The notes beneath the pieces are model-generated. The model was not told the origin of the DNA and did not search any database. It saw only the letters and a program-made list of their open reading frames with translations. Of a DNA stretch of 64,000 nt, positions 2,751-53,892 are shown piece after piece. Numbering within the stretch: position 1 is the stretch's first letter; each line of letters opens with the position of its first letter. The stretch is from Patescibacteria group bacterium (GTDB lineage Bacteria > Patescibacteriota > Minisyncoccia > Phycocordibacterales > UBA1550), in NCBI GenBank assembly GCA_038062675.1, contig JBBTWP010000001.1, positions 48,920 to 112,919 of the forward strand, read 5' to 3'. The position numbers and the translations under genes are program-made.

Positions 2751-5116
<2,366 letters not shown>

Positions 5117-5118
5117 TT

Positions 5119-5355
5119 ATGTTTAAACTCACCGTCGCACAAGTAGATAAAGTGTTGTTCAAAGGGGAGGTGCACCAAGTGACCTGTCCAGGGACCGGCG
5201 GGGATGTGACCATCCTCTCTCACCACGCACCGCTCGTGGCACCGCTTCGTGCAGGCGAGCTTCGTATTGTGGACGCGGGTGGGGTAGTGACACAAATTCC
5301 ACTTGCGGACGGTGTGCTCGAGGTGGGGGGCAATGAGGCGACGGTGTTGCTGTAA
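5119..5355 (+). CDS. atpC: F0F1 ATP synthase subunit epsilon (N-terminal beta-sandwich only)
   Basis: Last gene of the operon; 78 aa, lacks the C-terminal helical hairpin. Confidence 0.75.
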   Translation: MFKLTVAQVDKVLFKGEVHQVTCPGTGGDVTILSHHAPLVAPLRAGELRIVDAGGVVTQIPLADGVLEVGGNEATVLL

Positions 5356-5369
5356 AAGTAATTTTACCG

Positions 5370-5398
5370 TTGACAAGATTCTAGTTTTGCTGTATTTT
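5370..5398 (+). promoter_or_regulatory. sigma70-type promoter (TTGACA-17-TATTTT)
   Basis: TTGACA at 5370-5375, 17-nt spacer, TATTTT at 5393-5398; GGAGGG RBS 8 nt before the GTG at 5428. Confidence 0.5.
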
Positions 5399-5427
5399 AG
5401 CTTCAGACTGAATGGAGGGAAACAACC

Positions 5428-16657: not shown

Positions 16658-17755
16658 ATGGCACTTGCAATCGGTATCGTGGGGCTCCCTAATGTGGGTA
16701 AGTCGACTCTATTTAACGCCCTCACGAAAAAATCTGTCCCGGCGGAGAACTATCCGTTTTGTACTATCGACCCATCGGTAGGTGTCGTTGCAGTGCCCGA
16801 CGAGCGTCTCTATAAACTTGCAGAATTTTCAAAAACAAAAAAAACAATTCCCGCTGCCGTTGAGTTTGTGGACATTGCCGGTTTGGTGAAGGGAGCAAGT
16901 GAGGGTGAAGGTCTGGGCAATCAATTTCTCTCACACATTCGCGAAACAGATGCCATTGCAGAAGTAGTGCGTATCTTTGAAGATGACAACGTGATTCATG
17001 TGCATGGAAAGATAGACCCCGTGTCGGATATTGAGACGATCAACCTCGAACTCATTCTTGCCGACGACCAGACGGTCACCAAACGCCTTGCAAATATTGA
17101 GAAAGACGTGAAGCGTGGGGCGAAAGAAGCAATCAAAGAAAAAGAAGTGCTCACGAAAATTTCTGGAGCACTTAAGAGTGGGAATCTTGCACGCTCCGTT
17201 CCAATGACCGATGAAGAGACTCCGCTCGTGCGCACACTCCACCTCCTCACTATGAAGCCGATTTTGTATGTTTTGAACAAGAAAGCGGGTGGAAAAAACT
17301 TGGATGAAATGGGGGACGAGCGCTACGTAAAGCTCCTCGAGTATATTAAAAGCTTGAATGCACACTACGTGATTGTGGATGCTGGGGTGGAGCACGACCT
17401 TTCGCAACTCGAAGGTGAGGAAAAAGAAATGTTCCGTACAGAACTTGGCGCAAAAGACGATGGCGTGAATGAGCTCATCAAAAAAAGTTATGAGATGCTC
17501 GGACTTGAGGTGTACTTTACCACAGGTGAAGTTGAAACACGTGCGTGGACGATTAAAAAGGGAAGCACTGCACCGGTCGCAGGTATGGCGATTCACACCG
17601 ACTTTAAGGACAAATTCATTCGCGCAGAAGTAGTGTTTTGGAAAGATCTACTCGACGCCGGCTCGTATCCTGCCGCTCGCGAAAAAGGCCAAGTGCGCAT
17701 TGAGGGCAAAGAATACATTGTAAAAGACGGCGATGTGATTGAGTTTCGAGTGTAA
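16658..17755 (+). CDS. ychF: ribosome-binding ATPase YchF
   Basis: GIVGLPNVGKSTLFNALT G1 motif; TGS-like C-terminus. Confidence 0.95.
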   Translation: MALAIGIVGLPNVGKSTLFNALTKKSVPAENYPFCTIDPSVGVVAVPDERLYKLAEFSKTKKTIPAAVEFVDIAGLVKGASEGEGLGNQFLSHIRETDAIAEVVRIFEDDNVIHVHGKIDPVSDIETINLELILADDQTVTKRLANIEKDVKRGAKEAIKEKEVLTKISGALKSGNLARSVPMTDEETPLVRTLHLLTMKPILYVLNKKAGGKNLDEMGDERYVKLLEYIKSLNAHYVIVDAGVEHDLSQLEGEEKEMFRTELGAKDDGVNELIKKSYEMLGLEVYFTTGEVETRAWTIKKGSTAPVAGMAIHTDFKDKFIRAEVVFWKDLLDAGSYPAAREKGQVRIEGKEYIVKDGDVIEFRV

Positions 17756-17762
17756 AAAAACA

Positions 17763-17803
17763 CCCCCAAGACTTAGAGCAAGGGGGCGACCTGTTTTTGT
17801 TTA
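17763..17803 (+). terminator. weak intrinsic terminator
   Basis: ccccc...ggggg stem with a 14-nt loop, followed by tgtttttgttt. Confidence 0.35.
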
Positions 17804-17894
17804 GGTGGTAAGACGAGGTATCCCAGGACACCTCCCACTTGCAAGTCCTCAAGGCTGACTCTGCTTAAAAGTATACATATTTATAATTTTTTGT

Positions 17895-17927
17895 CAAGCA
17901 CCTTGAAGATGGCGATGTGATTGAGCT
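17895..17927 (+). repeat. degenerate in-frame copy of the ychF 3' end (33 bp)
   Basis: gaagatggcgatgtgattgagctttgtgtctag versus ychF 17723-17755 aaagacggcgatgtgattgagtttcgagtgtaa; 15-nt exact core, stop codon conserved. Confidence 0.7.
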
Positions 17928-17955
17928 TTGTGTCTAGGGGTGGTATAATTTTCGT

Positions 17956-19464
17956 ATGAAAATAAGACCCCTCTATCTTTTGTTTGCCATTTTTTTTGGG
18001 ATTCTCTCTTTTAGTTTGTTTTTGAGTGGTTCACTAGGTTATCCTGTTTCTAACCCTTTACTTGCAACGCTCCCAGTTACTTTTTATTCGGTTGTGATGG
18101 CTTCCACTCTTTTTTTTATTGCGCTTTCCCAATCCTACTTAACTTCCTTCTTTATTGCATTTTTTTACTTTTTATATGCATTTCATGGTTTGAAAGAAAA
18201 TGCATTCATCAAATCTACTTTATGGGCTCCTGTCATTCTGATTATGCTTGTATTTTGGGTGAGGTCAAATTCATATGGGTTTGAAGCAATTTTGTTTTTT
18301 GTTATTTTTTATGTAATTTTTCTTTTTTGTTTTGTCGTTGGGGTCATCCAGAGCCTTGTTGCTCGTTTTCGTCGCAAGCCCACTCTTGCGGCAATAGGGA
18401 ACAACTATTCACCGTCAGCGTTCCCCAGCACGTCCTTCGATGTTCGTTCAGGTTTGCCCTTAAATCAACAATACACGCCAACGAGCGTAGGACAAAGTGC
18501 TGGGTTCAAAAGCCCACCTTCGGGAAGTGAGCAATCAGTAAGTAGGTATCGTAGTACGCGTCGTACATTACTATTTGTGTGTATTGTCATTGTTATTTTT
18601 CTTGTTAGTTGGGGAGTTTTTAAACTTTTTGTTGACAAGAATGCTTTTCAAATTGAGAATATTCCACAAAGCAGTGTACTAAGTGGGGGTGAGTCGGTTC
18701 CAAAAGAAGAGGTAAGAAATACTGATGGAGTTTTGCAAAGCAGTATGTTAAAAGAACCCAAAGCAGATAGTAGAGAGCGCCAAATGATGGACTACATAAA
18801 AAAGTCACGAGGGGGCGGGGACAACATTTCAATTATTTCAGCGGCAAGGGATGTTCCAGTAGACTCAAATACTTTATTTTTTTCATTCAAATTTAAAAAT
18901 TTTAAGCAAAATTTGACCCTAGATGTATATGTGGATAAGGAGAAATTATATCACGCAGATGCAAAACAAGTTGGGGCAGAAAAGTGGATCCAATTCAACA
19001 CGATAGGCGTCGCGCCGTATCAAGGGAAAAATGTCATCTTGTCTTTTGTCATTGAGGGGGATAAAGGTTCTGGTTTGCAGATAGACGATTTAATTTTTGC
19101 ACAAGTTGAACCGATCGAGTCGGCAACCAAACTAGTTTCTGATGCCACTTTCGTTATAAGCAATCCTAAAAAAGATCAGGTGGTAAATAGCCCGTTAGTC
19201 GTTGAGGGAAAGGCTGATGCAAAACTATTTCCCGAAGGGTGGTTTCGTGTTAGGTTGACAGACGTCAACTACAGGAATATCGCCAGTGCAAATGCCACTG
19301 CCTCTGTCTATCCATTGGTAGCGGACAAAGACGGGAACATGCCTTTCTATACGAGGCTGGTATTTGATGCGAAAAGCGTTTCTACGGATAGTGGATTTCT
19401 TTTCCTCGACAGTAATGGAAGTGAAAATTTACCAGGCCTGCGCATTCCCGTGAGGTTTAGGTAG
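17956..19464 (+). CDS. membrane protein with C-terminal Gmad2 (GerM-like Ig) domain
   Basis: Five or six N-terminal TM helices; C-terminal VISNPKKDQVVNSPLVVEGKADAKLFPEGWFRVRLTD resembles the Gmad2 fold motif; extended -10 TGGTATAAT upstream. Confidence 0.5.
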   Translation: MKIRPLYLLFAIFFGILSFSLFLSGSLGYPVSNPLLATLPVTFYSVVMASTLFFIALSQSYLTSFFIAFFYFLYAFHGLKENAFIKSTLWAPVILIMLVFWVRSNSYGFEAILFFVIFYVIFLFCFVVGVIQSLVARFRRKPTLAAIGNNYSPSAFPSTSFDVRSGLPLNQQYTPTSVGQSAGFKSPPSGSEQSVSRYRSTRRTLLFVCIVIVIFLVSWGVFKLFVDKNAFQIENIPQSSVLSGGESVPKEEVRNTDGVLQSSMLKEPKADSRERQMMDYIKKSRGGGDNISIISAARDVPVDSNTLFFSFKFKNFKQNLTLDVYVDKEKLYHADAKQVGAEKWIQFNTIGVAPYQGKNVILSFVIEGDKGSGLQIDDLIFAQVEPIESATKLVSDATFVISNPKKDQVVNSPLVVEGKADAKLFPEGWFRVRLTDVNYRNIASANATASVYPLVADKDGNMPFYTRLVFDAKSVSTDSGFLFLDSNGSENLPGLRIPVRFR

Positions 19465-19512
19465 GGACGAGTGAGGGCAACTTAGGCAAGAATACGGTAG
19501 TAATTTTTTACA

Positions 19513-20952
19513 ATGACCATAAATGAAATAGCTCAGCGTCACTATCTTTTAAAAAAAATGAGGAATTTCGTTATTCTCGCCACCATTTTGGCTTCAATGG
19601 GTTTATTTACTTACTACCAATTTTTTTATCATTTAATTTATACTGATCCTCAAAATAAGAATTGTCGTATCGACATTTACCCAAGTTATCATTATGAACA
19701 AGCTGACGTTGCGAGTACCATAGATACAATAAAGGTATATTCACCCGAATATTTTCAAAAAATTTGTCGCTATACGAAGGAGATTAAATATAACGAGTGT
19801 AAAGGTAATCCTCATGTGTGGGGTACTCGTGTAGGGGGTTGTGTCGGTACGTTTGACCAGATATGGCTTACGGATGTCCAAGTAAGTCCAACCATATTGG
19901 TGCACGAGACTTGTCATTTGCATCAAAATTATACATTTACCAAAGAGTTCAGTAAGGGTGATAGGGCAAAAATAGAAGCCGAGTGTTATAGTGAGCAAAA
20001 TAAATTTTTGGACATTATGACAAAAGATATGTCCGCTTCGTCAACCTCGGGCACCGTAATACCTGTCAAAAGTAGCACACCTTTTGATTCAAGAATCGAT
20101 TACATTACTGGAGACGTTCCTGTTGGTGTCGCCTTCGATAATATAACAAACTCAGTGTGGGTATCAAACTGGCGATCTGGAACGGTTAGTAAAATTAATA
20201 ATATTACTGGCGGGAAAGTTGACTACCCTGTTGGTGTTTTGCCGTATGGCGTTACTTTTGATAGTGTAACTAAATCAGTGTGGGTTGCAAGTTGGAGTTC
20301 GGAAGTAGTAAGTAAGGTGGATATTTTTACGGGAACTAAAACTGATTACCCTCTTAAAAGTAGGCCTTTTGGCGTTACTTTTGATTCAGTTACCAATTCT
20401 GTTTGGATTGCAGAATATTACGGCGATATTATTAAAATGAATATTTTTACTGGTTTAAAAGATAGTTATAACACTGAAGAAAGATTTATTAGTTTTCTTT
20501 CTGCGGCATTTGATCCAGTTACTAATTCTATTTGGATAACGAACCAGCATTCTAATTTCGTAATTAAGGTAAATGTATTTACAGGCACCAGAATTAGTTA
20601 TCCCGTCGGGGATGGTCCGTCTGGCTTGGCTTTTGATGGTATAACTAATTCAATATGGGTTGCTAATGCTGGTTCAAATACGGTGAGCAAAATAAATATT
20701 CACACAGGGGCAAGATCTGATTATGCAACCAATTTGAGCCCCGATTCAGTTGCTTTTGACCAAAAAACTAACTCAGTGTGGGTAACAAATAGAGATTCCG
20801 ATAATATCAGTAAGATTAATGTTCGTACTGGAGCTAAGATGGACTATTTTGCTGGAGATCGTCCTAGGGGTGTCGTTTTTGACCCAGTCACTAATTCTGT
20901 TTGGGTTGCGAACTCCGGCTCAAATACTATCAGTAAGATTAAAGTTCAGTAA
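19513..20952 (+). CDS. YVTN-type beta-propeller repeat protein with N-terminal HExxH domain
   Basis: N-terminal TM helix; HETCH motif at about aa 137; about 9 tandem ~42-aa repeats (..TNSVWVAN.GSNTVSKI..). Confidence 0.65.
   Translation: MTINEIAQRHYLLKKMRNFVILATILASMGLFTYYQFFYHLIYTDPQNKNCRIDIYPSYHYEQADVASTIDTIKVYSPEYFQKICRYTKEIKYNECKGNPHVWGTRVGGCVGTFDQIWLTDVQVSPTILVHETCHLHQNYTFTKEFSKGDRAKIEAECYSEQNKFLDIMTKDMSASSTSGTVIPVKSSTPFDSRIDYITGDVPVGVAFDNITNSVWVSNWRSGTVSKINNITGGKVDYPVGVLPYGVTFDSVTKSVWVASWSSEVVSKVDIFTGTKTDYPLKSRPFGVTFDSVTNSVWIAEYYGDIIKMNIFTGLKDSYNTEERFISFLSAAFDPVTNSIWITNQHSNFVIKVNVFTGTRISYPVGDGPSGLAFDGITNSIWVANAGSNTVSKINIHTGARSDYATNLSPDSVAFDQKTNSVWVTNRDSDNISKINVRTGAKMDYFAGDRPRGVVFDPVTNSVWVANSGSNTISKIKVQ
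20090..20945 (+). repeat. tandem ~126-bp coding repeats (YVTN blades)
   Basis: Recurring gtgtgggt..aa...gg..aa unit visible at DNA level inside the CDS. Confidence 0.6.
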
Positions 20953-20989
20953 GTACACAGCTTGCTTCATGGTGTTGCCTTTAAATAAA

Positions 20990-21016
20990 AACGCGAGATG
21001 GGTGACATCTCGCGTT
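20990..21016. terminator. bidirectional terminator between convergent genes
   Basis: aacgcgagatg-ggtga-catctcgcgtt, flanked by an A-tract upstream and a T/A run downstream. Confidence 0.7.
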
Positions 21017-21024
21017 AAATCGTG

Positions 21025-21207
21025 CTAAAAATTAATAAGTGTGTAGTTACACTCTTCAGTGTTGGTGCCTTTTGCTCTGCCACACATAGGACAATGGTTT
21101 TCATCAATCGGACGGGTGAAGTTTTTTATCTCTCCCGTAAAATCCTTGGTGGGGCATTCAAATTTATAGTTGTAATAGCGTCTGGGGGTTACATCAGTTT
21201 CGCTCAT
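21025..21207 (-). CDS. small zinc-ribbon-like protein
   Basis: 60 aa with a CPTK...CPMCG...C cysteine pattern. Confidence 0.4.
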   Translation of the reverse strand: MSETDVTPRRYYNYKFECPTKDFTGEIKNFTRPIDENHCPMCGRAKGTNTEECNYTLINF

Positions 21208-21314
21208 AACATTTCATCCCGTTGAGTTGTGTCTGTTCACAACAGTATCATTAAATATGCGGTAAGCATAGTCTGTCTGAGTCAGTGCACATGTGTTATC
21301 ATTTGTATATCAAT

Positions 21315-23598: not shown

Positions 23599-23638
23599 AC
23601 CAAACTCGCGCTCTTTTGAAGAAGGGCGCGAGTTTGGT
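23599..23638 (+). promoter_or_regulatory. 13-bp inverted repeat overlapping the leuS promoter region
   Basis: accaaactcgcgc...gcgcgagtttggt, immediately followed by the extended -10 TGGTATAAT at 23635-23643. Confidence 0.4.
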
Positions 23639-23652
23639 ATAATGTACTCTAC

Positions 23653-26106
23653 ATGACCCCCTACGACCACAAAACAATAGAAAAGAAGTGGCAGGCCGCA
23701 TGGGAAGCGAAACAGCTCTATCACACGAAGAGCGACTCTCTAAAGCCGAAAGCATACGTACTCGACATGTTCCCGTATCCGTCGGGAGACGGGCTCCATG
23801 TTGGACATCCAAAGGGGTACATTGCAACCGATATTTACTCGCGCATGAAGACTATGCAAGGGTACAATGTGCTTCACCCGATGGGGTGGGATGCGTTTGG
23901 CTTGCCCGCTGAACAATATGCTATTAAAAACAAAGTGCATCCCCGTGTGGCAGTCGACAAAAATGTTGCGCGGTATAAGGAGCAACTTTCGGTAATTGGT
24001 TTTAATTATGATTGGACACGCGAACTCAACACAACCGACCCAGCATTTTATAAATGGACGCAGTGGATCTTTTTGAAAATGTTTGAAAAGGGGCTTGCGT
24101 ATGAATCCTATGAGCCTATTAATTGGTGCCCAACGTGCCAAACGGGGCTTGCGAACGAAGACCTTGATGGTTGCAACTGCGAGCGTTGCGATACGCTGGT
24201 GGTAAAAAAACCAATGCGTCAGTGGGTGCTTCGTATTACAGATTATGCCGATCGTTTACTTGCGGATATTGATGCGCTTAATTGGCCTGTGTCGATAAAA
24301 GAATCTCAAAAGAATTGGATAGGGCGAAGCGAGGGTGCAGAGATTGATTTTGTTGTCGAGGGAAGTGAGAAAAAAATCACCGTGTTCACGACACGCCCCG
24401 ATACGCTCTTTGGGGCGACGTATGTGGTGCTTGCGCCCGAGAGCAAAATTTTGGAAGACCTTAAACAACAAATCCTAAACGGGAACGAAGTTTCTCTGTA
24501 TTGCGAGAGTGCAGGAAAACAAAGCGAGATTGAGCGAACGACCGTGGGGCGAGAGAAGACCGGCGTACGCCTCGATGGAGTGATGGCGATAAATCCGGCA
24601 AACAATGAGAAGCTTCCGGTTTTTGTTGCAGATTATGTTTTAGGGCATTATGGTACGGGTGCTGTGATGGCAGTGCCAGCGCATGATGAGCGGGATTTTG
24701 AGTTTGCGAGAAAGTTTGGACTACGAAACAGAAAGGTTGTGTTTCCGAATCCTCTCGTCAGTGTCCCGAGGAATGCGAAGGATATTGCCATGGGGGTTGT
24801 TGGTGAGTTGCGTGTGGTCACTGAGTGTTTTATGGGAAGTGGTGAGATGGTAAATTCGGATCGTTTTACGGGATTTTTTAATGAAGACGCAAAAAAGCCA
24901 ATCACTGATTTTGTTAAAGGGCGCTGGGTTACGAAATATCGCCTCAAGGATTGGGTCTTTTCGCGTCAACGATATTGGGGAGAACCAATCCCACTCATAC
25001 ACTGCGAGAAGTGTGGCGTAGTTCCTGTGCCCGAAAAAGATTTACCGGTTATACTTCCCAATGTGGAATCCTATGCACCGACAGGGACAGGGGAATCACC
25101 CCTCGCGGATATTTCTGAATGGGTGAACACAACATGTCCAAAGTGTAGTGGGAAAGGGAAGCGTGAGACCAACACTATGCCACAGTGGGCGGGTTCATCG
25201 TGGTACTATTTGCGCTATATTGATCCGAAAAATACCGAGATGCTCGTCGACAAAAAACAAGAAGCATATTGGTCGCCCGTGGATATGTATGTGGGTGGCG
25301 CCGAGCATGCAACGCGTCATCTCATCTACGCGCGTTTCTACCACAAGTTTCTCTACGATATTGGTGTTGTGAATTACGAGGAGCCGTTTAAGCGTCTTCA
25401 AAATGTCGGACTCATTATGGCGGAAGACGGACGCAAAATGAGCAAGCGATGGGGGAATGTGGTAAATCCAGATGATATTGTGGCAACCTATGGTGCTGAC
25501 ACCCTTCGCCTTTATGAAATGTTTATGGGGCCGTTTGGGCAGTCGGTAGTGTGGAGCACAGAGTCTATTATTGGCCCTCGCCGATTCATTGAGCGGGTGT
25601 GGCGACTTGCGGATAATGTGAAAGAGGGAGAAGGTGATGCCAAGCTTGAAGCGGTGCTTCATAAAACAATTAAAAAAGTGGGTGATGATATTGAATCATT
25701 TGGCTTCAATACGGCAATTTCGGCGCTTATGATTTTGGTAAATGAAATGGAAAAAGCGACGCAGGTTTCGCGCGTGCACTACGAAACCTTGCTCCGACTT
25801 TTGGCGCCATTTGCTCCCCATGTCGCTGAAGAACTGTGGTCACATGTTGGCAATGTCGAGTCGATTCATCTTGAATCTTGGCCAGTGTTTGATGCGACAA
25901 AAACTGTTACAAGTCAGGTGGTTATTGCGATTCAAGTGAATGGAAAAGTACGCGACACCATGACGGTTCCTGTTGAAACAGGAGAAGTCTCCGCAAGCAC
26001 TATGGCGCAAGAACGTCCTACTGTAGCAAAATGGATTTTTGGAAAAAAAATAAAGAGGGTAATTTTTGTACCACAAAAACTTTTGAATATTGTGGTAGAG
26101 GAGTAA
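23653..26106 (+). CDS. leuS: leucyl-tRNA synthetase
   Basis: HVGHPKGY HIGH motif, KMSKRWGN KMSKS motif, CP1 editing domain. Confidence 0.95.
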   Translation: MTPYDHKTIEKKWQAAWEAKQLYHTKSDSLKPKAYVLDMFPYPSGDGLHVGHPKGYIATDIYSRMKTMQGYNVLHPMGWDAFGLPAEQYAIKNKVHPRVAVDKNVARYKEQLSVIGFNYDWTRELNTTDPAFYKWTQWIFLKMFEKGLAYESYEPINWCPTCQTGLANEDLDGCNCERCDTLVVKKPMRQWVLRITDYADRLLADIDALNWPVSIKESQKNWIGRSEGAEIDFVVEGSEKKITVFTTRPDTLFGATYVVLAPESKILEDLKQQILNGNEVSLYCESAGKQSEIERTTVGREKTGVRLDGVMAINPANNEKLPVFVADYVLGHYGTGAVMAVPAHDERDFEFARKFGLRNRKVVFPNPLVSVPRNAKDIAMGVVGELRVVTECFMGSGEMVNSDRFTGFFNEDAKKPITDFVKGRWVTKYRLKDWVFSRQRYWGEPIPLIHCEKCGVVPVPEKDLPVILPNVESYAPTGTGESPLADISEWVNTTCPKCSGKGKRETNTMPQWAGSSWYYLRYIDPKNTEMLVDKKQEAYWSPVDMYVGGAEHATRHLIYARFYHKFLYDIGVVNYEEPFKRLQNVGLIMAEDGRKMSKRWGNVVNPDDIVATYGADTLRLYEMFMGPFGQSVVWSTESIIGPRRFIERVWRLADNVKEGEGDAKLEAVLHKTIKKVGDDIESFGFNTAISALMILVNEMEKATQVSRVHYETLLRLLAPFAPHVAEELWSHVGNVESIHLESWPVFDATKTVTSQVVIAIQVNGKVRDTMTVPVETGEVSASTMAQERPTVAKWIFGKKIKRVIFVPQKLLNIVVEE

Positions 26107-46553: not shown

Positions 46554-47630
46554 ATGGCAAAAGATTATTACAAAATATTGGGGGTAGATAAAAAGGCAAG
46601 CGCGGACGAAATTAAAAAAGCGTTCCGTAAGCTCGCGCACCAGCATCACCCCGACAAAGGGGGTGATGAGAAGAAGTTCAAGGAAGCCAGCGAAGCGTAC
46701 CAAGTGCTCTCGGACGACAAAAAGCGTGCCTCGTATGATACGTATGGAGAAGCGGGGGCGCAAGGGTTTGGTGGGCACGGAGGAGGGCAGGGTTTCGATC
46801 CTTCAGGCTTCGGTGGTTTTAACACGCAGGGGTTTAGTGGCGATATTGACCTCAATGACATTTTCGGAGAGTTTTTTGGCGGTGGACGCCGAACGGCTCC
46901 TGAAAAGCGTCGTGGGCGAGATGTTTCTGTTGACCTTGAAGTTTCTTTTTCCGAAGCAATTTTCGGCGTGAAGCGCAAGGTGCTCATCACCAAAACTTCT
47001 TCTTGCACCACGTGTGATGGTACGGGCGCAAAGAGTGGTACTCCAATGAAGACCTGCGCCACCTGTGAAGGAAAGGGGAGTATTGAGGAAACAAAACGTT
47101 CGTTCTTGGGCGTCTTTTCACAAACACGCGAATGTTCGACATGTGCTGGTGTGGGGAAAATCCCTGAACAAAAATGTGCGGAATGCAAAGGACATGGCGT
47201 GCTTCGTCGTGAGAGTGAGCTTACCATTGAAATTCCAGCAGGTATCCAACATGGAGAGATGGTGCGCCTTTCTGGCGCGGGGGAGGCGATACAGAATGGA
47301 ACTTCGGGTGACTTGTATGTGAGAATCCGTGTCGCCCCACACAAAGTATTCCATCGTGAGGGACAAAATCTCGTTATGCATCTTTCAGTGAAATTCACTG
47401 ACGCTATTTTGGGCGCCGAATATCCAATAGAAACATTGGACGGCAAAATAGATTTGTCGATTCCGAAAGGGGTGTCGTCGGGTGAGGTTCTGCGTGTGCG
47501 CGGCAAGGGGGTGCCCATGGGCGCCAAGCATCGTGGTGACCTCCTCATAAAACTTGAAATAAAAACCCCCACCAAACTTTCCCGCCAAGCACTCAAGCTT
47601 GTTGAGGGGTTGAGAGGGGAGGGGGTGTAG
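46554..47630 (+). CDS. dnaJ: molecular chaperone DnaJ
   Basis: J-domain HPD motif; G/F region; four CxxCxGxG repeats. Confidence 0.95.
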
Positions 47631-48908: not shown

Positions 48909-48948
48909 ATACGATTAAAATCGGATTATAATTTATAGGAGGTGTGCC

Positions 48949-53522: not shown

Positions 53523-53892
53523 TGTACTATTCACGGGCGCAGGGGAAGCTATTCAGAATGGCACGGCAGGTGACTTGTATGTCAGAATTCACGTCGCCCC
53601 ACATAAAGTATTCCATCGTGAGGGACAAAATCTCGTTATGCATCTTTCAGTGAAATTCACTGACGCTATTTTGGGCGCCGAATATCCAATAGAAACATTG
53701 GACGGCAAAATAGATTTGTCGATTCCGAAAGGGGTGTCGTCGGGTGAGGTTCTGCGTGTGCGCGGCAAAGGGGTGCCCATGGGCGCCAAGCACCGTGGCG
53801 ACCTCCTTATAAAGCTTGAAATAAAAACCCCCACCAAACTTTCCCGCCAAGCACTCAAGCTTGTTGAAGAACTGCGGGGGGAAGGTGTATAA
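53523..53892 (+). pseudogene. truncated duplicate of the dnaJ 3' end (C-terminal domain fragment)
   Basis: About 95% nt identity to 47270-47630, including a ~170-nt identical core; no J-domain or zinc finger. Confidence 0.85.

Follow-up and report, generated by a model that had tools for sequence, protein, structure and literature searches.

Second copy of the ychF gene end in a Patescibacteria genome, a probable relic of phage-related integration

Introduction

Why should the last codons of an intact housekeeping gene be repeated in the non-coding DNA directly behind it? The question is raised by a 64,000-nt stretch of a Patescibacteria genome (GenBank assembly GCA_038062675.1, contig JBBTWP010000001.1, forward-strand positions 48,920 to 112,919; hereafter the window, with positions counted from its first letter), in which the 3′ end of ychF recurs a short distance downstream of the gene. 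An earlier note, made from the sequence alone, had described this repeat and suggested that DNA may have been inserted at a gene end with regeneration of the tail. Here, the repeat was followed into close relatives, other Patescibacteria and viral contigs. With a probability of roughly 0.65, the downstream copy is the displaced original end of ychF, an attR-like relic of a Campbell-type, most likely integrase-mediated, phage-related insertion into the last ~10 codons of the gene. Very few phages of the Patescibacteria (candidate phyla radiation) have been tied to their hosts, and little is known of how they integrate.

The repeat behind ychF

The ychF gene occupies 16658-17755 on the forward strand and encodes an intact redox-regulated ATPase YchF of 365 aa, as identified from its open reading frame (ORF) and the Pfam domains MMR_HSR1 and YchF-GTPase_C. 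Its C terminus follows the family consensus, ending in KDGDVIEFRV and the stop, and EF[RK][VI] forms the C-terminal end in all 120 of the closest YchF homologues. The functional last 10 codons and stop of the gene (copy 1, aaagacggcgatgtgattgagtttcgagtgtaa) lie at 17723-17755, and a non-coding copy on the same strand (copy 2, gaagatggcgatgtgattgagctttgtgtctag), which would read EDGDVIELCV and stop, was located at 17905-17937. Both strings and their exact 15-nt core had been correctly recognized in the earlier note, but the copy had been placed at 17895-17927; the spacing, given as 172 bp, is actually 182 nt, and the interval of ~140 bp measures 149 nt (17756-17904, hereafter X). The two copies agree at 26 of 33 positions and share the core GGCGATGTGATTGAG, found on the forward strand at 17729-17743, which is taken as the region of crossover, and again at 17911-17925.

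Read in the frame of the tail, three of the 7 differences are non-synonymous and four are synonymous (copy 1/copy 2: a/g, c/t, t/c, c/t, a/t, g/c and a/g). An in-frame stop lies 6 codons upstream of copy 2, which has no usable start and is therefore no part of a gene. Because the ELCV ending was found in none of the 120 closest YchF homologues, copy 2 is regarded as the decaying one of the pair.

Shuffled sequences, by which the earlier note had proposed to judge its repeat, speak clearly for it. In none of 3000 dinucleotide-shuffled versions of the 600 nt behind ychF did any 33-nt stretch match the tail at more than 21 positions, compared with the 26 observed; when the entire window was shuffled, 2 of 100 trials produced a direct repeat of 15 nt within 300 nt. 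When the 62 genes of the window were scanned for copies of their own tails, ychF was the sole gene with such a copy, the runner-up reaching 20/33. Further short duplicates, for which the note had proposed a genome-wide search, were lacking among these genes at the 33-nt scale; the duplicated end of dnaJ (see below), invisible at that scale, surfaced only in a self-BLAST of the window. The intergenic region behind ychF is identical in six contigs obtained from different samples with different assemblers. The repeat is thus beyond chance and no artefact of assembly.

Tail copies in other lineages, a phage and a lysogen

In a survey of about 37 ychF loci, taken from genomes that represent Patescibacteria species, comparable repeats were seen in L002, L003 and L008. 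Each of these three repeats the gene tail on the same strand outside any gene, 285-340 nt downstream and with the stop in register, and what lies between the tail copies differs from one locus to the next. An array of three tail copies was found on a 569-kb host contig (ENA ERZ15185090 NODE_3, here L111; positions 4311-4865), and the same array is present in L112. In L111, copy A is frame-broken, copy B reads EDGGLIEFKV and stop, and copy C, which reads EDGGVIEFKI and stop, is phage-borne and leads into a prophage; between copies B and C lies a 68-aa gene with its own TTGACA-17-TATACT promoter, and uvrA and a TrmB-like gene lie upstream of the array. When 13 tails and copies were aligned (A1), they proved to have one left boundary in common, AAGAYGG, and most of the non-genic copies, that of the window included, have (T/A)GAAGATGG at the junction.

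The IMG/VR viral collection was searched with a degenerate ychF-tail pattern lacking the Lys codon, and one phage was matched, represented by the contigs L100 and L101. The full 33-nt degenerate pattern, Lys codon included, gave no match in viral contigs, and a second, differently relaxed pattern gave no further match in the viral collection. The phage encodes portal, terminase, Sak4-like, O-like and RusA proteins and carries an isolated GATGGGGATGTTATGGAGTTTAAGATATAA (DGDVMEFKI and stop), in which TAA stands at the position of the ychF Lys codon. Downstream of this tail mimic follow a terminator and then early phage genes, and a few nt upstream of it lies an inward-facing TTGACA-17-TATTAT, a site read by eye. 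An inward-facing TTGACA promoter abuts both the window copy 2 and the phage attP. The 28 nt behind the mimic, used to search viral contigs for an integrated form, retrieved the same two contigs only, and no tail mimic was seen in L104-L110, viral contigs that contain distant relatives of the first gene of the phage. On phage IMGVR_UViG_3300027913_000597, a gene start lies about 75 nt from the mimic (MGNGAYWWVALDN...).

A homologue of the first phage gene led to a 110-kb host contig (ERZ926232 k127_9789, here L113) with the gene order DHO_dh, PGI, YchF, 154 nt, phage first-gene homologue, AAA_24 and Phage_rep_O. Its YchF is 70% identical to that of the window. Homology between L113 and the phage starts exactly at AAGATGG in ychF, takes in the stop codon and extends into the phage genes; a temperate family of Patescibacteria phages thus integrates at the 3′ end of ychF and supplies its last ~10 codons. 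The junction in the lysogen falls at the boundary of the repeat, in L113 compared with the phage as in the copies aligned in A1. A free element with an attP mimic was observed in this related system (L100/L101), not for X itself.

The earlier idea of DNA inserted at a gene end with its tail regenerated is borne out, in that the arrangement recurs at ychF in several other Patescibacteria, but the lineage-specific mechanism that had been envisaged is not needed, as Campbell-type integration suffices. The suggestion that the repeat could be the footprint of a small element has fared well, the phage and the lysogen showing how such an architecture arises.

A block recently shared with a close relative

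The relatives of the window YchF are Patescibacteria, with Yonathbacteria-type matches at 84-98% identity, and the exact protein is also present in Hainich groundwater assemblies. In L087 (98%), ychF differs from the window gene at 130 of 1090 positions (12%). These differences, 116 of which are at third codon positions, are evenly spread up to 17728; across 17729-17908, comprising the last 27 nt of ychF and X, there are none. Because this block is 100% identical despite 12% divergence of ychF, it was exchanged recently, by horizontal transfer, between the lineages of the window and L087. Identity that starts at the core would be expected if the DNA to the right of the crossover were a recently acquired element.

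Beyond the block the two genomes part. L087 keeps the 153 nt that follow ychF in the window and then jumps to window position 21280; the point of divergence lies between 17908 and 17909, and the extra segment of the window begins exactly with copy 2. Other relatives (L088, L089, L090, L093/L094, L095, L097 and L099) have no tail copy and other DNA behind ychF, and L088, L090, L093/L094, L097 and L099 represent unoccupied sites. The absence of the insert from relatives, which the earlier note had proposed to check, therefore holds for several close ones, but not for L087, which carries X.

Proposed origin of the second copy

Elements that use this site would carry their own copy of the last ychF codons and stop. 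Crossover in the shared core would then let ychF read into the element-supplied tail, now copy 1, so that the gene would stay intact; copy 1 would be the attL-like junction, and the DNA to the right of about 17729 would be element-derived. The original tail of the host would be displaced downstream as copy 2, where it would drift to ELCV and stop while still providing the next gene with the -35 box of its promoter. X can be interpreted as the remnant, much reduced by deletion, of such an integrated element, its left arm holding the ychF terminator and its right arm the inward promoter, or alternatively as a miniature element, little more than an attP.

Integration of this kind explains the boundary of the repeat, the consensus tail of copy 1 compared with ELCV in copy 2, the inward-facing promoter, and the onset of identity with L087 at the core. 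The direct repeats that bracket the insert are in the same orientation and include the gene end, as att repeats would be; the target gene is intact and the displaced copy is non-coding or decaying; and close relatives have unoccupied sites. From these features we infer that the window copy itself arose by this route, with an integrase as the agent and copy 2 as the old tail.

Several observations weigh against this origin. No integrase or recombinase was detected between or around the copies in the window, whether among the ORFs or among the domains of neighbouring genes, which is expected for a remnant and excludes X as an autonomous element. None was seen in the phage either, whose contigs L100 and L101 end about 100 nt beyond the mimic. 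On alignment, X has no significant similarity to the phage arms of L100 and L113. L087 has X and no second copy, with X joined directly to the promoter of the next gene, a junction not foreseen by simple integration. A recent arrival of X should have left the displaced tail with a functional look, whereas three non-synonymous changes are present in copy 2. Over its final 12 nt, copy 2 fits a promoter-like stretch (found behind the terminator in the relative L089, and in X) about as well as it fits the tail end, and its stop codon, which had been described as conserved, may be coincidental. No ychF is present within 4.3 kb upstream of the tail-copy array in L111. Finally, the first viral pattern match had a rough chance expectation of about 0.3-0.7, based on an assumed collection of 5e10-1e11 bases and not computed, and the weight of the phage evidence therefore rests on the L113 junction.

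Alternative explanations

Copy 2 might instead be a recombination scar. A 3.4-kb segment would have been imported, by homology-facilitated illegitimate recombination, from a donor in which it lay directly behind ychF, with its right end in the homologous region of a 176-aa gene and its left end at an AAG microhomology to X, dragging along the last 30 nt of the donor ychF. The window-L087 difference, which is exactly 17909-21279 with copy 2 first in the segment, accords with such an import, as do the 3-nt microhomology at the junction (...TTGAAG/ATGG compared with ...AAAAG/ATGG in ychF), the end of the segment in a piece of DNA (Y, see below) that normally adjoins ychF, as in L088 and L093, and the hypervariability of the region behind ychF even between close relatives. 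A random joint, however, would miss the AAGAYGG boundary common to the phage attP, the lysogen and the copies from four further genomes, and the inward-facing promoter and the 100%-identical block starting at the core are left unexplained. Neither was a donor arrangement, with ychF followed by the 502-aa gene that stands behind copy 2, found in any genome when searched for via the 502-aa protein; this protein is a near-orphan, and its sole relative follows an RRM-protein gene, away from ychF. No third tail copy was found at the right end of the segment. On balance, we consider the import unlikely. Less likely still is a local tandem duplication of tail, terminator and promoter that was kept for its function, whereby copy 1 kept the coding role while its promoter decayed (TGGTAAGAC, 17807-17815) and copy 2, its terminator lost, today acts as the core promoter for the 502-aa gene. 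A good extended -10 promoter does have its -35 box in copy 2, and the 3′ part of the copy together with that promoter (CTTTGTGTCTAGGGGTGGTATAAT) matches the post-terminator DNA of L089 (GTTTTTGTCTAGGTGGTATAAT) at 21/23 with one 2-nt gap and also resembles window 17793-17815. This similarity is partly generic, since TGGTATAAT is the general -10 consensus of the genome, and the duplication accounts neither for the tail copies in other lineages, which have unrelated DNA behind them, nor for the phage and the lysogen.

Chance and faulty assembly are left with next to no probability. At 33 nt the repeat is short, and over the final 12 nt it agrees with the ychF tail at only 7 positions, but the shuffles, the scan of 62 genes and the six identical assemblies all stand against these explanations. 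Diversity-generating retroelements are frequent in Patescibacteria genomes, and a repeat at a gene 3′ end with a copy just downstream recalls their template and variable repeats; the 7 mismatches, however, are not adenine-specific in either direction, the repeat has only 33 nt and sits in a housekeeping GTPase, and no reverse transcriptase domain was detected in the neighbouring genes. The retroelement is therefore given as little credence as chance, and the same holds for a footprint of the miniature inverted-repeat transposable element (MITE) type, which the earlier note had raised for the insert. No second copy of X is present within the window, no terminal inverted repeats bounding X were found, and a 22-nt motif of X was recovered in one contig among the scanned metagenomes, from the same sample series, which rules the MITE out. 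Known target-site duplications are far shorter than 33 nt.

An extension of the integration origin, offered tentatively, is that X and one core, together 182 bp (17729-17910), form an element that is still mobile, in essence a bare attP with a terminator and a promoter, moved in trans by the integrase of a ychF-targeting phage, spreading between Patescibacteria lineages and seeding arrays of cassettes. If this were true, it would be an integrase-dependent counterpart of a MITE or a cassette platform on a housekeeping gene end, and the seeded cassettes would include those of L003 (a DUF6881 gene) and L111 (the 68-aa gene).

Comparison with known systems

The closest known case is prophage e14 in E. 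coli icd, with its icdC pseudogene (PMC13626634). There, as proposed here, the insertion site is within the 3′ end of a protein gene with an essential or housekeeping role, the element supplies a near-identical gene end, and the displaced end becomes a non-functional direct repeat downstream. The present locus differs in its target, ychF of Patescibacteria, in the length of the duplicated piece (about 33 nt), and in that the window retains just 149 nt of the element and no integrase.

Cis-mobilizable elements (CIMEs) of Streptococcus thermophilus are att-flanked elements without recombination genes of their own, derived from integrative elements. X likewise is bounded by attL/attR-like repeats at the site of a larger family and lacks a recombinase, and the tandem accretion of such elements at one att site resembles the three-copy array of L111; X is, however, far smaller (149 nt) and without cargo, and its mobilization in trans is hypothetical. 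The identity of the block 17729-17908 with L087 fits recent transfer as a unit; L087, however, has no second att copy. Arrays of tRNA-gene 3′ fragments arise by the serial integration of phages and genomic islands. Here too one conserved 3′ end would be reused as attB, with decaying partial copies piling up downstream; as the end belongs to a protein gene, the copies keep frame and stop instead of an acceptor stem. In pneumococcal prophages and satellite prophages, attB adjoins ychF (PMC8637289, PMC10383233), so that ychF neighbours a phage attachment site there as well; those sites are intergenic and upstream of ychF, with no duplication of a gene end.

In a search of the literature, the ychF 3′ end was not found described as an attachment site of Patescibacteria phages, and nothing specific was found on the attachment sites of Patescibacteria prophages. 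The mechanism, integration at a gene end, is known, and no new principle is involved; it is the ychF target that was not found described. Through a mimic of the last ten ychF codons, contigs of uncultured phages can be linked by sequence to Patescibacteria hosts, and the ychF end marks a variable hot spot that collects small accessory genes in very small genomes. The locus also provides a simple account of duplicated gene tails, which annotation pipelines may call pseudogenes or misassemblies.

Insert X and the promoters around it

The 149 nt of X (17756-17904) contain no ORF of note. A weak hairpin on the forward strand (17763-17786; CCCCC, 14-nt loop, GGGGG), followed by TTTTT at 17794-17798, is probably the terminator of ychF; its calculated stability of -11.8 kcal/mol (z = -1.1) agrees with the weak terminator described in the earlier note. 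The terminator scan reported none, the hairpin behind ychF not being picked up. The first 55 nt past the ychF stop are common to the window and the relative L089, and the motif GAGGTATCCCAGGACACCTCCC (17815-17836, forward strand) is conserved at the same place in L087 and L089.

The promoter of the next gene had been placed inside the insert, but this proved wrong. The AT-rich site within X is a promoter-like TTGACA-16-TATACT (11/12) on the minus strand at 17870-17897, which faces back toward ychF and whose -35 box is a few nt away from copy 2. The 502-aa gene, next in line, instead has a promoter that overlaps copy 2 (17921-17949, forward strand): the -35 box TTGAGC begins at 17921, inside the copy, and is followed by a 17-nt spacer and the extended -10 element TGGTATAAT. 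The ATG of the 502-aa gene at 17956 lies 6 nt past the -10, which ends at 17949. TGGTATAAT also occurs upstream of genes at 23635 and 54626. It stands 6-9 nt before the ATG of the 502-aa gene (17944-17958) and of the gene at 23653 (23635-23655), and neither of these two genes has a Shine-Dalgarno sequence. Their mRNAs are probably leaderless, as is indicated for the 502-aa gene by an ATG only 6 nt past the -10.

Evidence for a structured RNA was sought without success. A scan of the whole window for tRNA and tmRNA gave no match, Rfam gave none at the gathering score in the window and noise only at E values up to 10 in 17600-18100, and X folds no more stably than shuffled sequence on either strand (z about -1). 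These results give no support to a small structured RNA in X.

Some smaller features of this region were also recorded. A possible third, more decayed tail copy, whose status is uncertain, lies at 17779-17811 on the forward strand (21/33, with TAA in the same register) and overlaps the right half of the terminator hairpin; of the 3000 shuffles, one gave a match of at least 21/33 to the ychF tail. A 10-nt palindrome, ACTTGCAAGT, is common to X (17836-17845) and the phage-derived arm behind ychF in L113 (about 4909-4918). Its alignment score was equalled by shuffled sequence in 5 of 200 trials, and the palindrome may be a protein-binding site or chance. In L089, a 90% relative, positions 2744-2850 were compared with window 17794-17846. 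There, an extended -10 promoter, TTGTCTAGGTGGTATAAT, stands behind the ychF terminator, and next come a hairpin of 8 perfectly paired bp, the motif GAGGTATCCCAGGACACCTCCC and a T-run; together these could make up a short transcription unit (about 95 nt). The window counterpart has a degenerate promoter (TGGTAAGAC) and lacks the hairpin.

The dnaJ duplication

The earlier note had joined the ychF repeat to a second locus of the same architecture, the end of dnaJ. This duplication is real. A second copy of the final 356 nt of dnaJ (47274-47629) lies at 53536-53891, 6.26 kb downstream, with 92.4% identity, and in both layouts a gene end is duplicated around inserted DNA. The two dnaJ copies differ by 28 mismatches, 23 of them at third codon positions, so that 3 of 119 aa are changed, and no mismatch falls within the central 164 nt. 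The intervening 5.9 kb encode an aminotransferase, an M20 peptidase, a low-molecular-weight phosphatase, TyrRS and prephenate dehydratase, and no recombinase was found there. Because of the long homology and the housekeeping cargo, the dnaJ duplication points rather to a homology-driven single-crossover event; a mechanism shared with ychF, as the note had suggested, is not supported, the dnaJ repeat being long (356 nt) and its differences mostly synonymous.

Variable DNA behind ychF

The 3371-bp segment that is absent from L087 (17909-21279, forward strand) holds copy 2, the genes for the 502-aa near-orphan membrane or surface protein (17956-19464) and a 479-aa NHL-repeat protein (19513-20952), and segment Y (20982-21280), which consists of a terminator and a small minus-strand ORF of Zn-ribbon type. 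Segment Y lies directly 3′ of the ychF stop in L088 (96% aa) and in L093/L094 (88%), and is likely the ancestral neighbour of ychF. The Zn-ribbon-like ORF, of about 60 aa (...CPTKDF...CPMCGK...), was seen on the minus strand at L088 1222-1530, L093 4599-4885 and window 20982-21280; it is the usual neighbour of ychF in the clade and has no Pfam match.

Other relatives have small accessory modules at the site. In L095 (87%), a two-gene module that includes a weak ParE-toxin match lies behind ychF at 4902-5399, and in L097 a MacB gene stands directly at that place, a contrast that is another sign of the ychF site collecting small accessory modules. At L003 5099-5416, a complete DUF6881 gene (96 aa, E = 2e-30) lies exactly between the ychF tail and its copy, starting 10 nt past the ychF stop and having its own stop codon inside the tail copy, and looks like a single-gene cassette. 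Within the 479-aa NHL-repeat gene of the window, 123-nt periodic repeats extend over 20134-20947, with exact 15-16-mers at 20247/20370 and 20805/20928.

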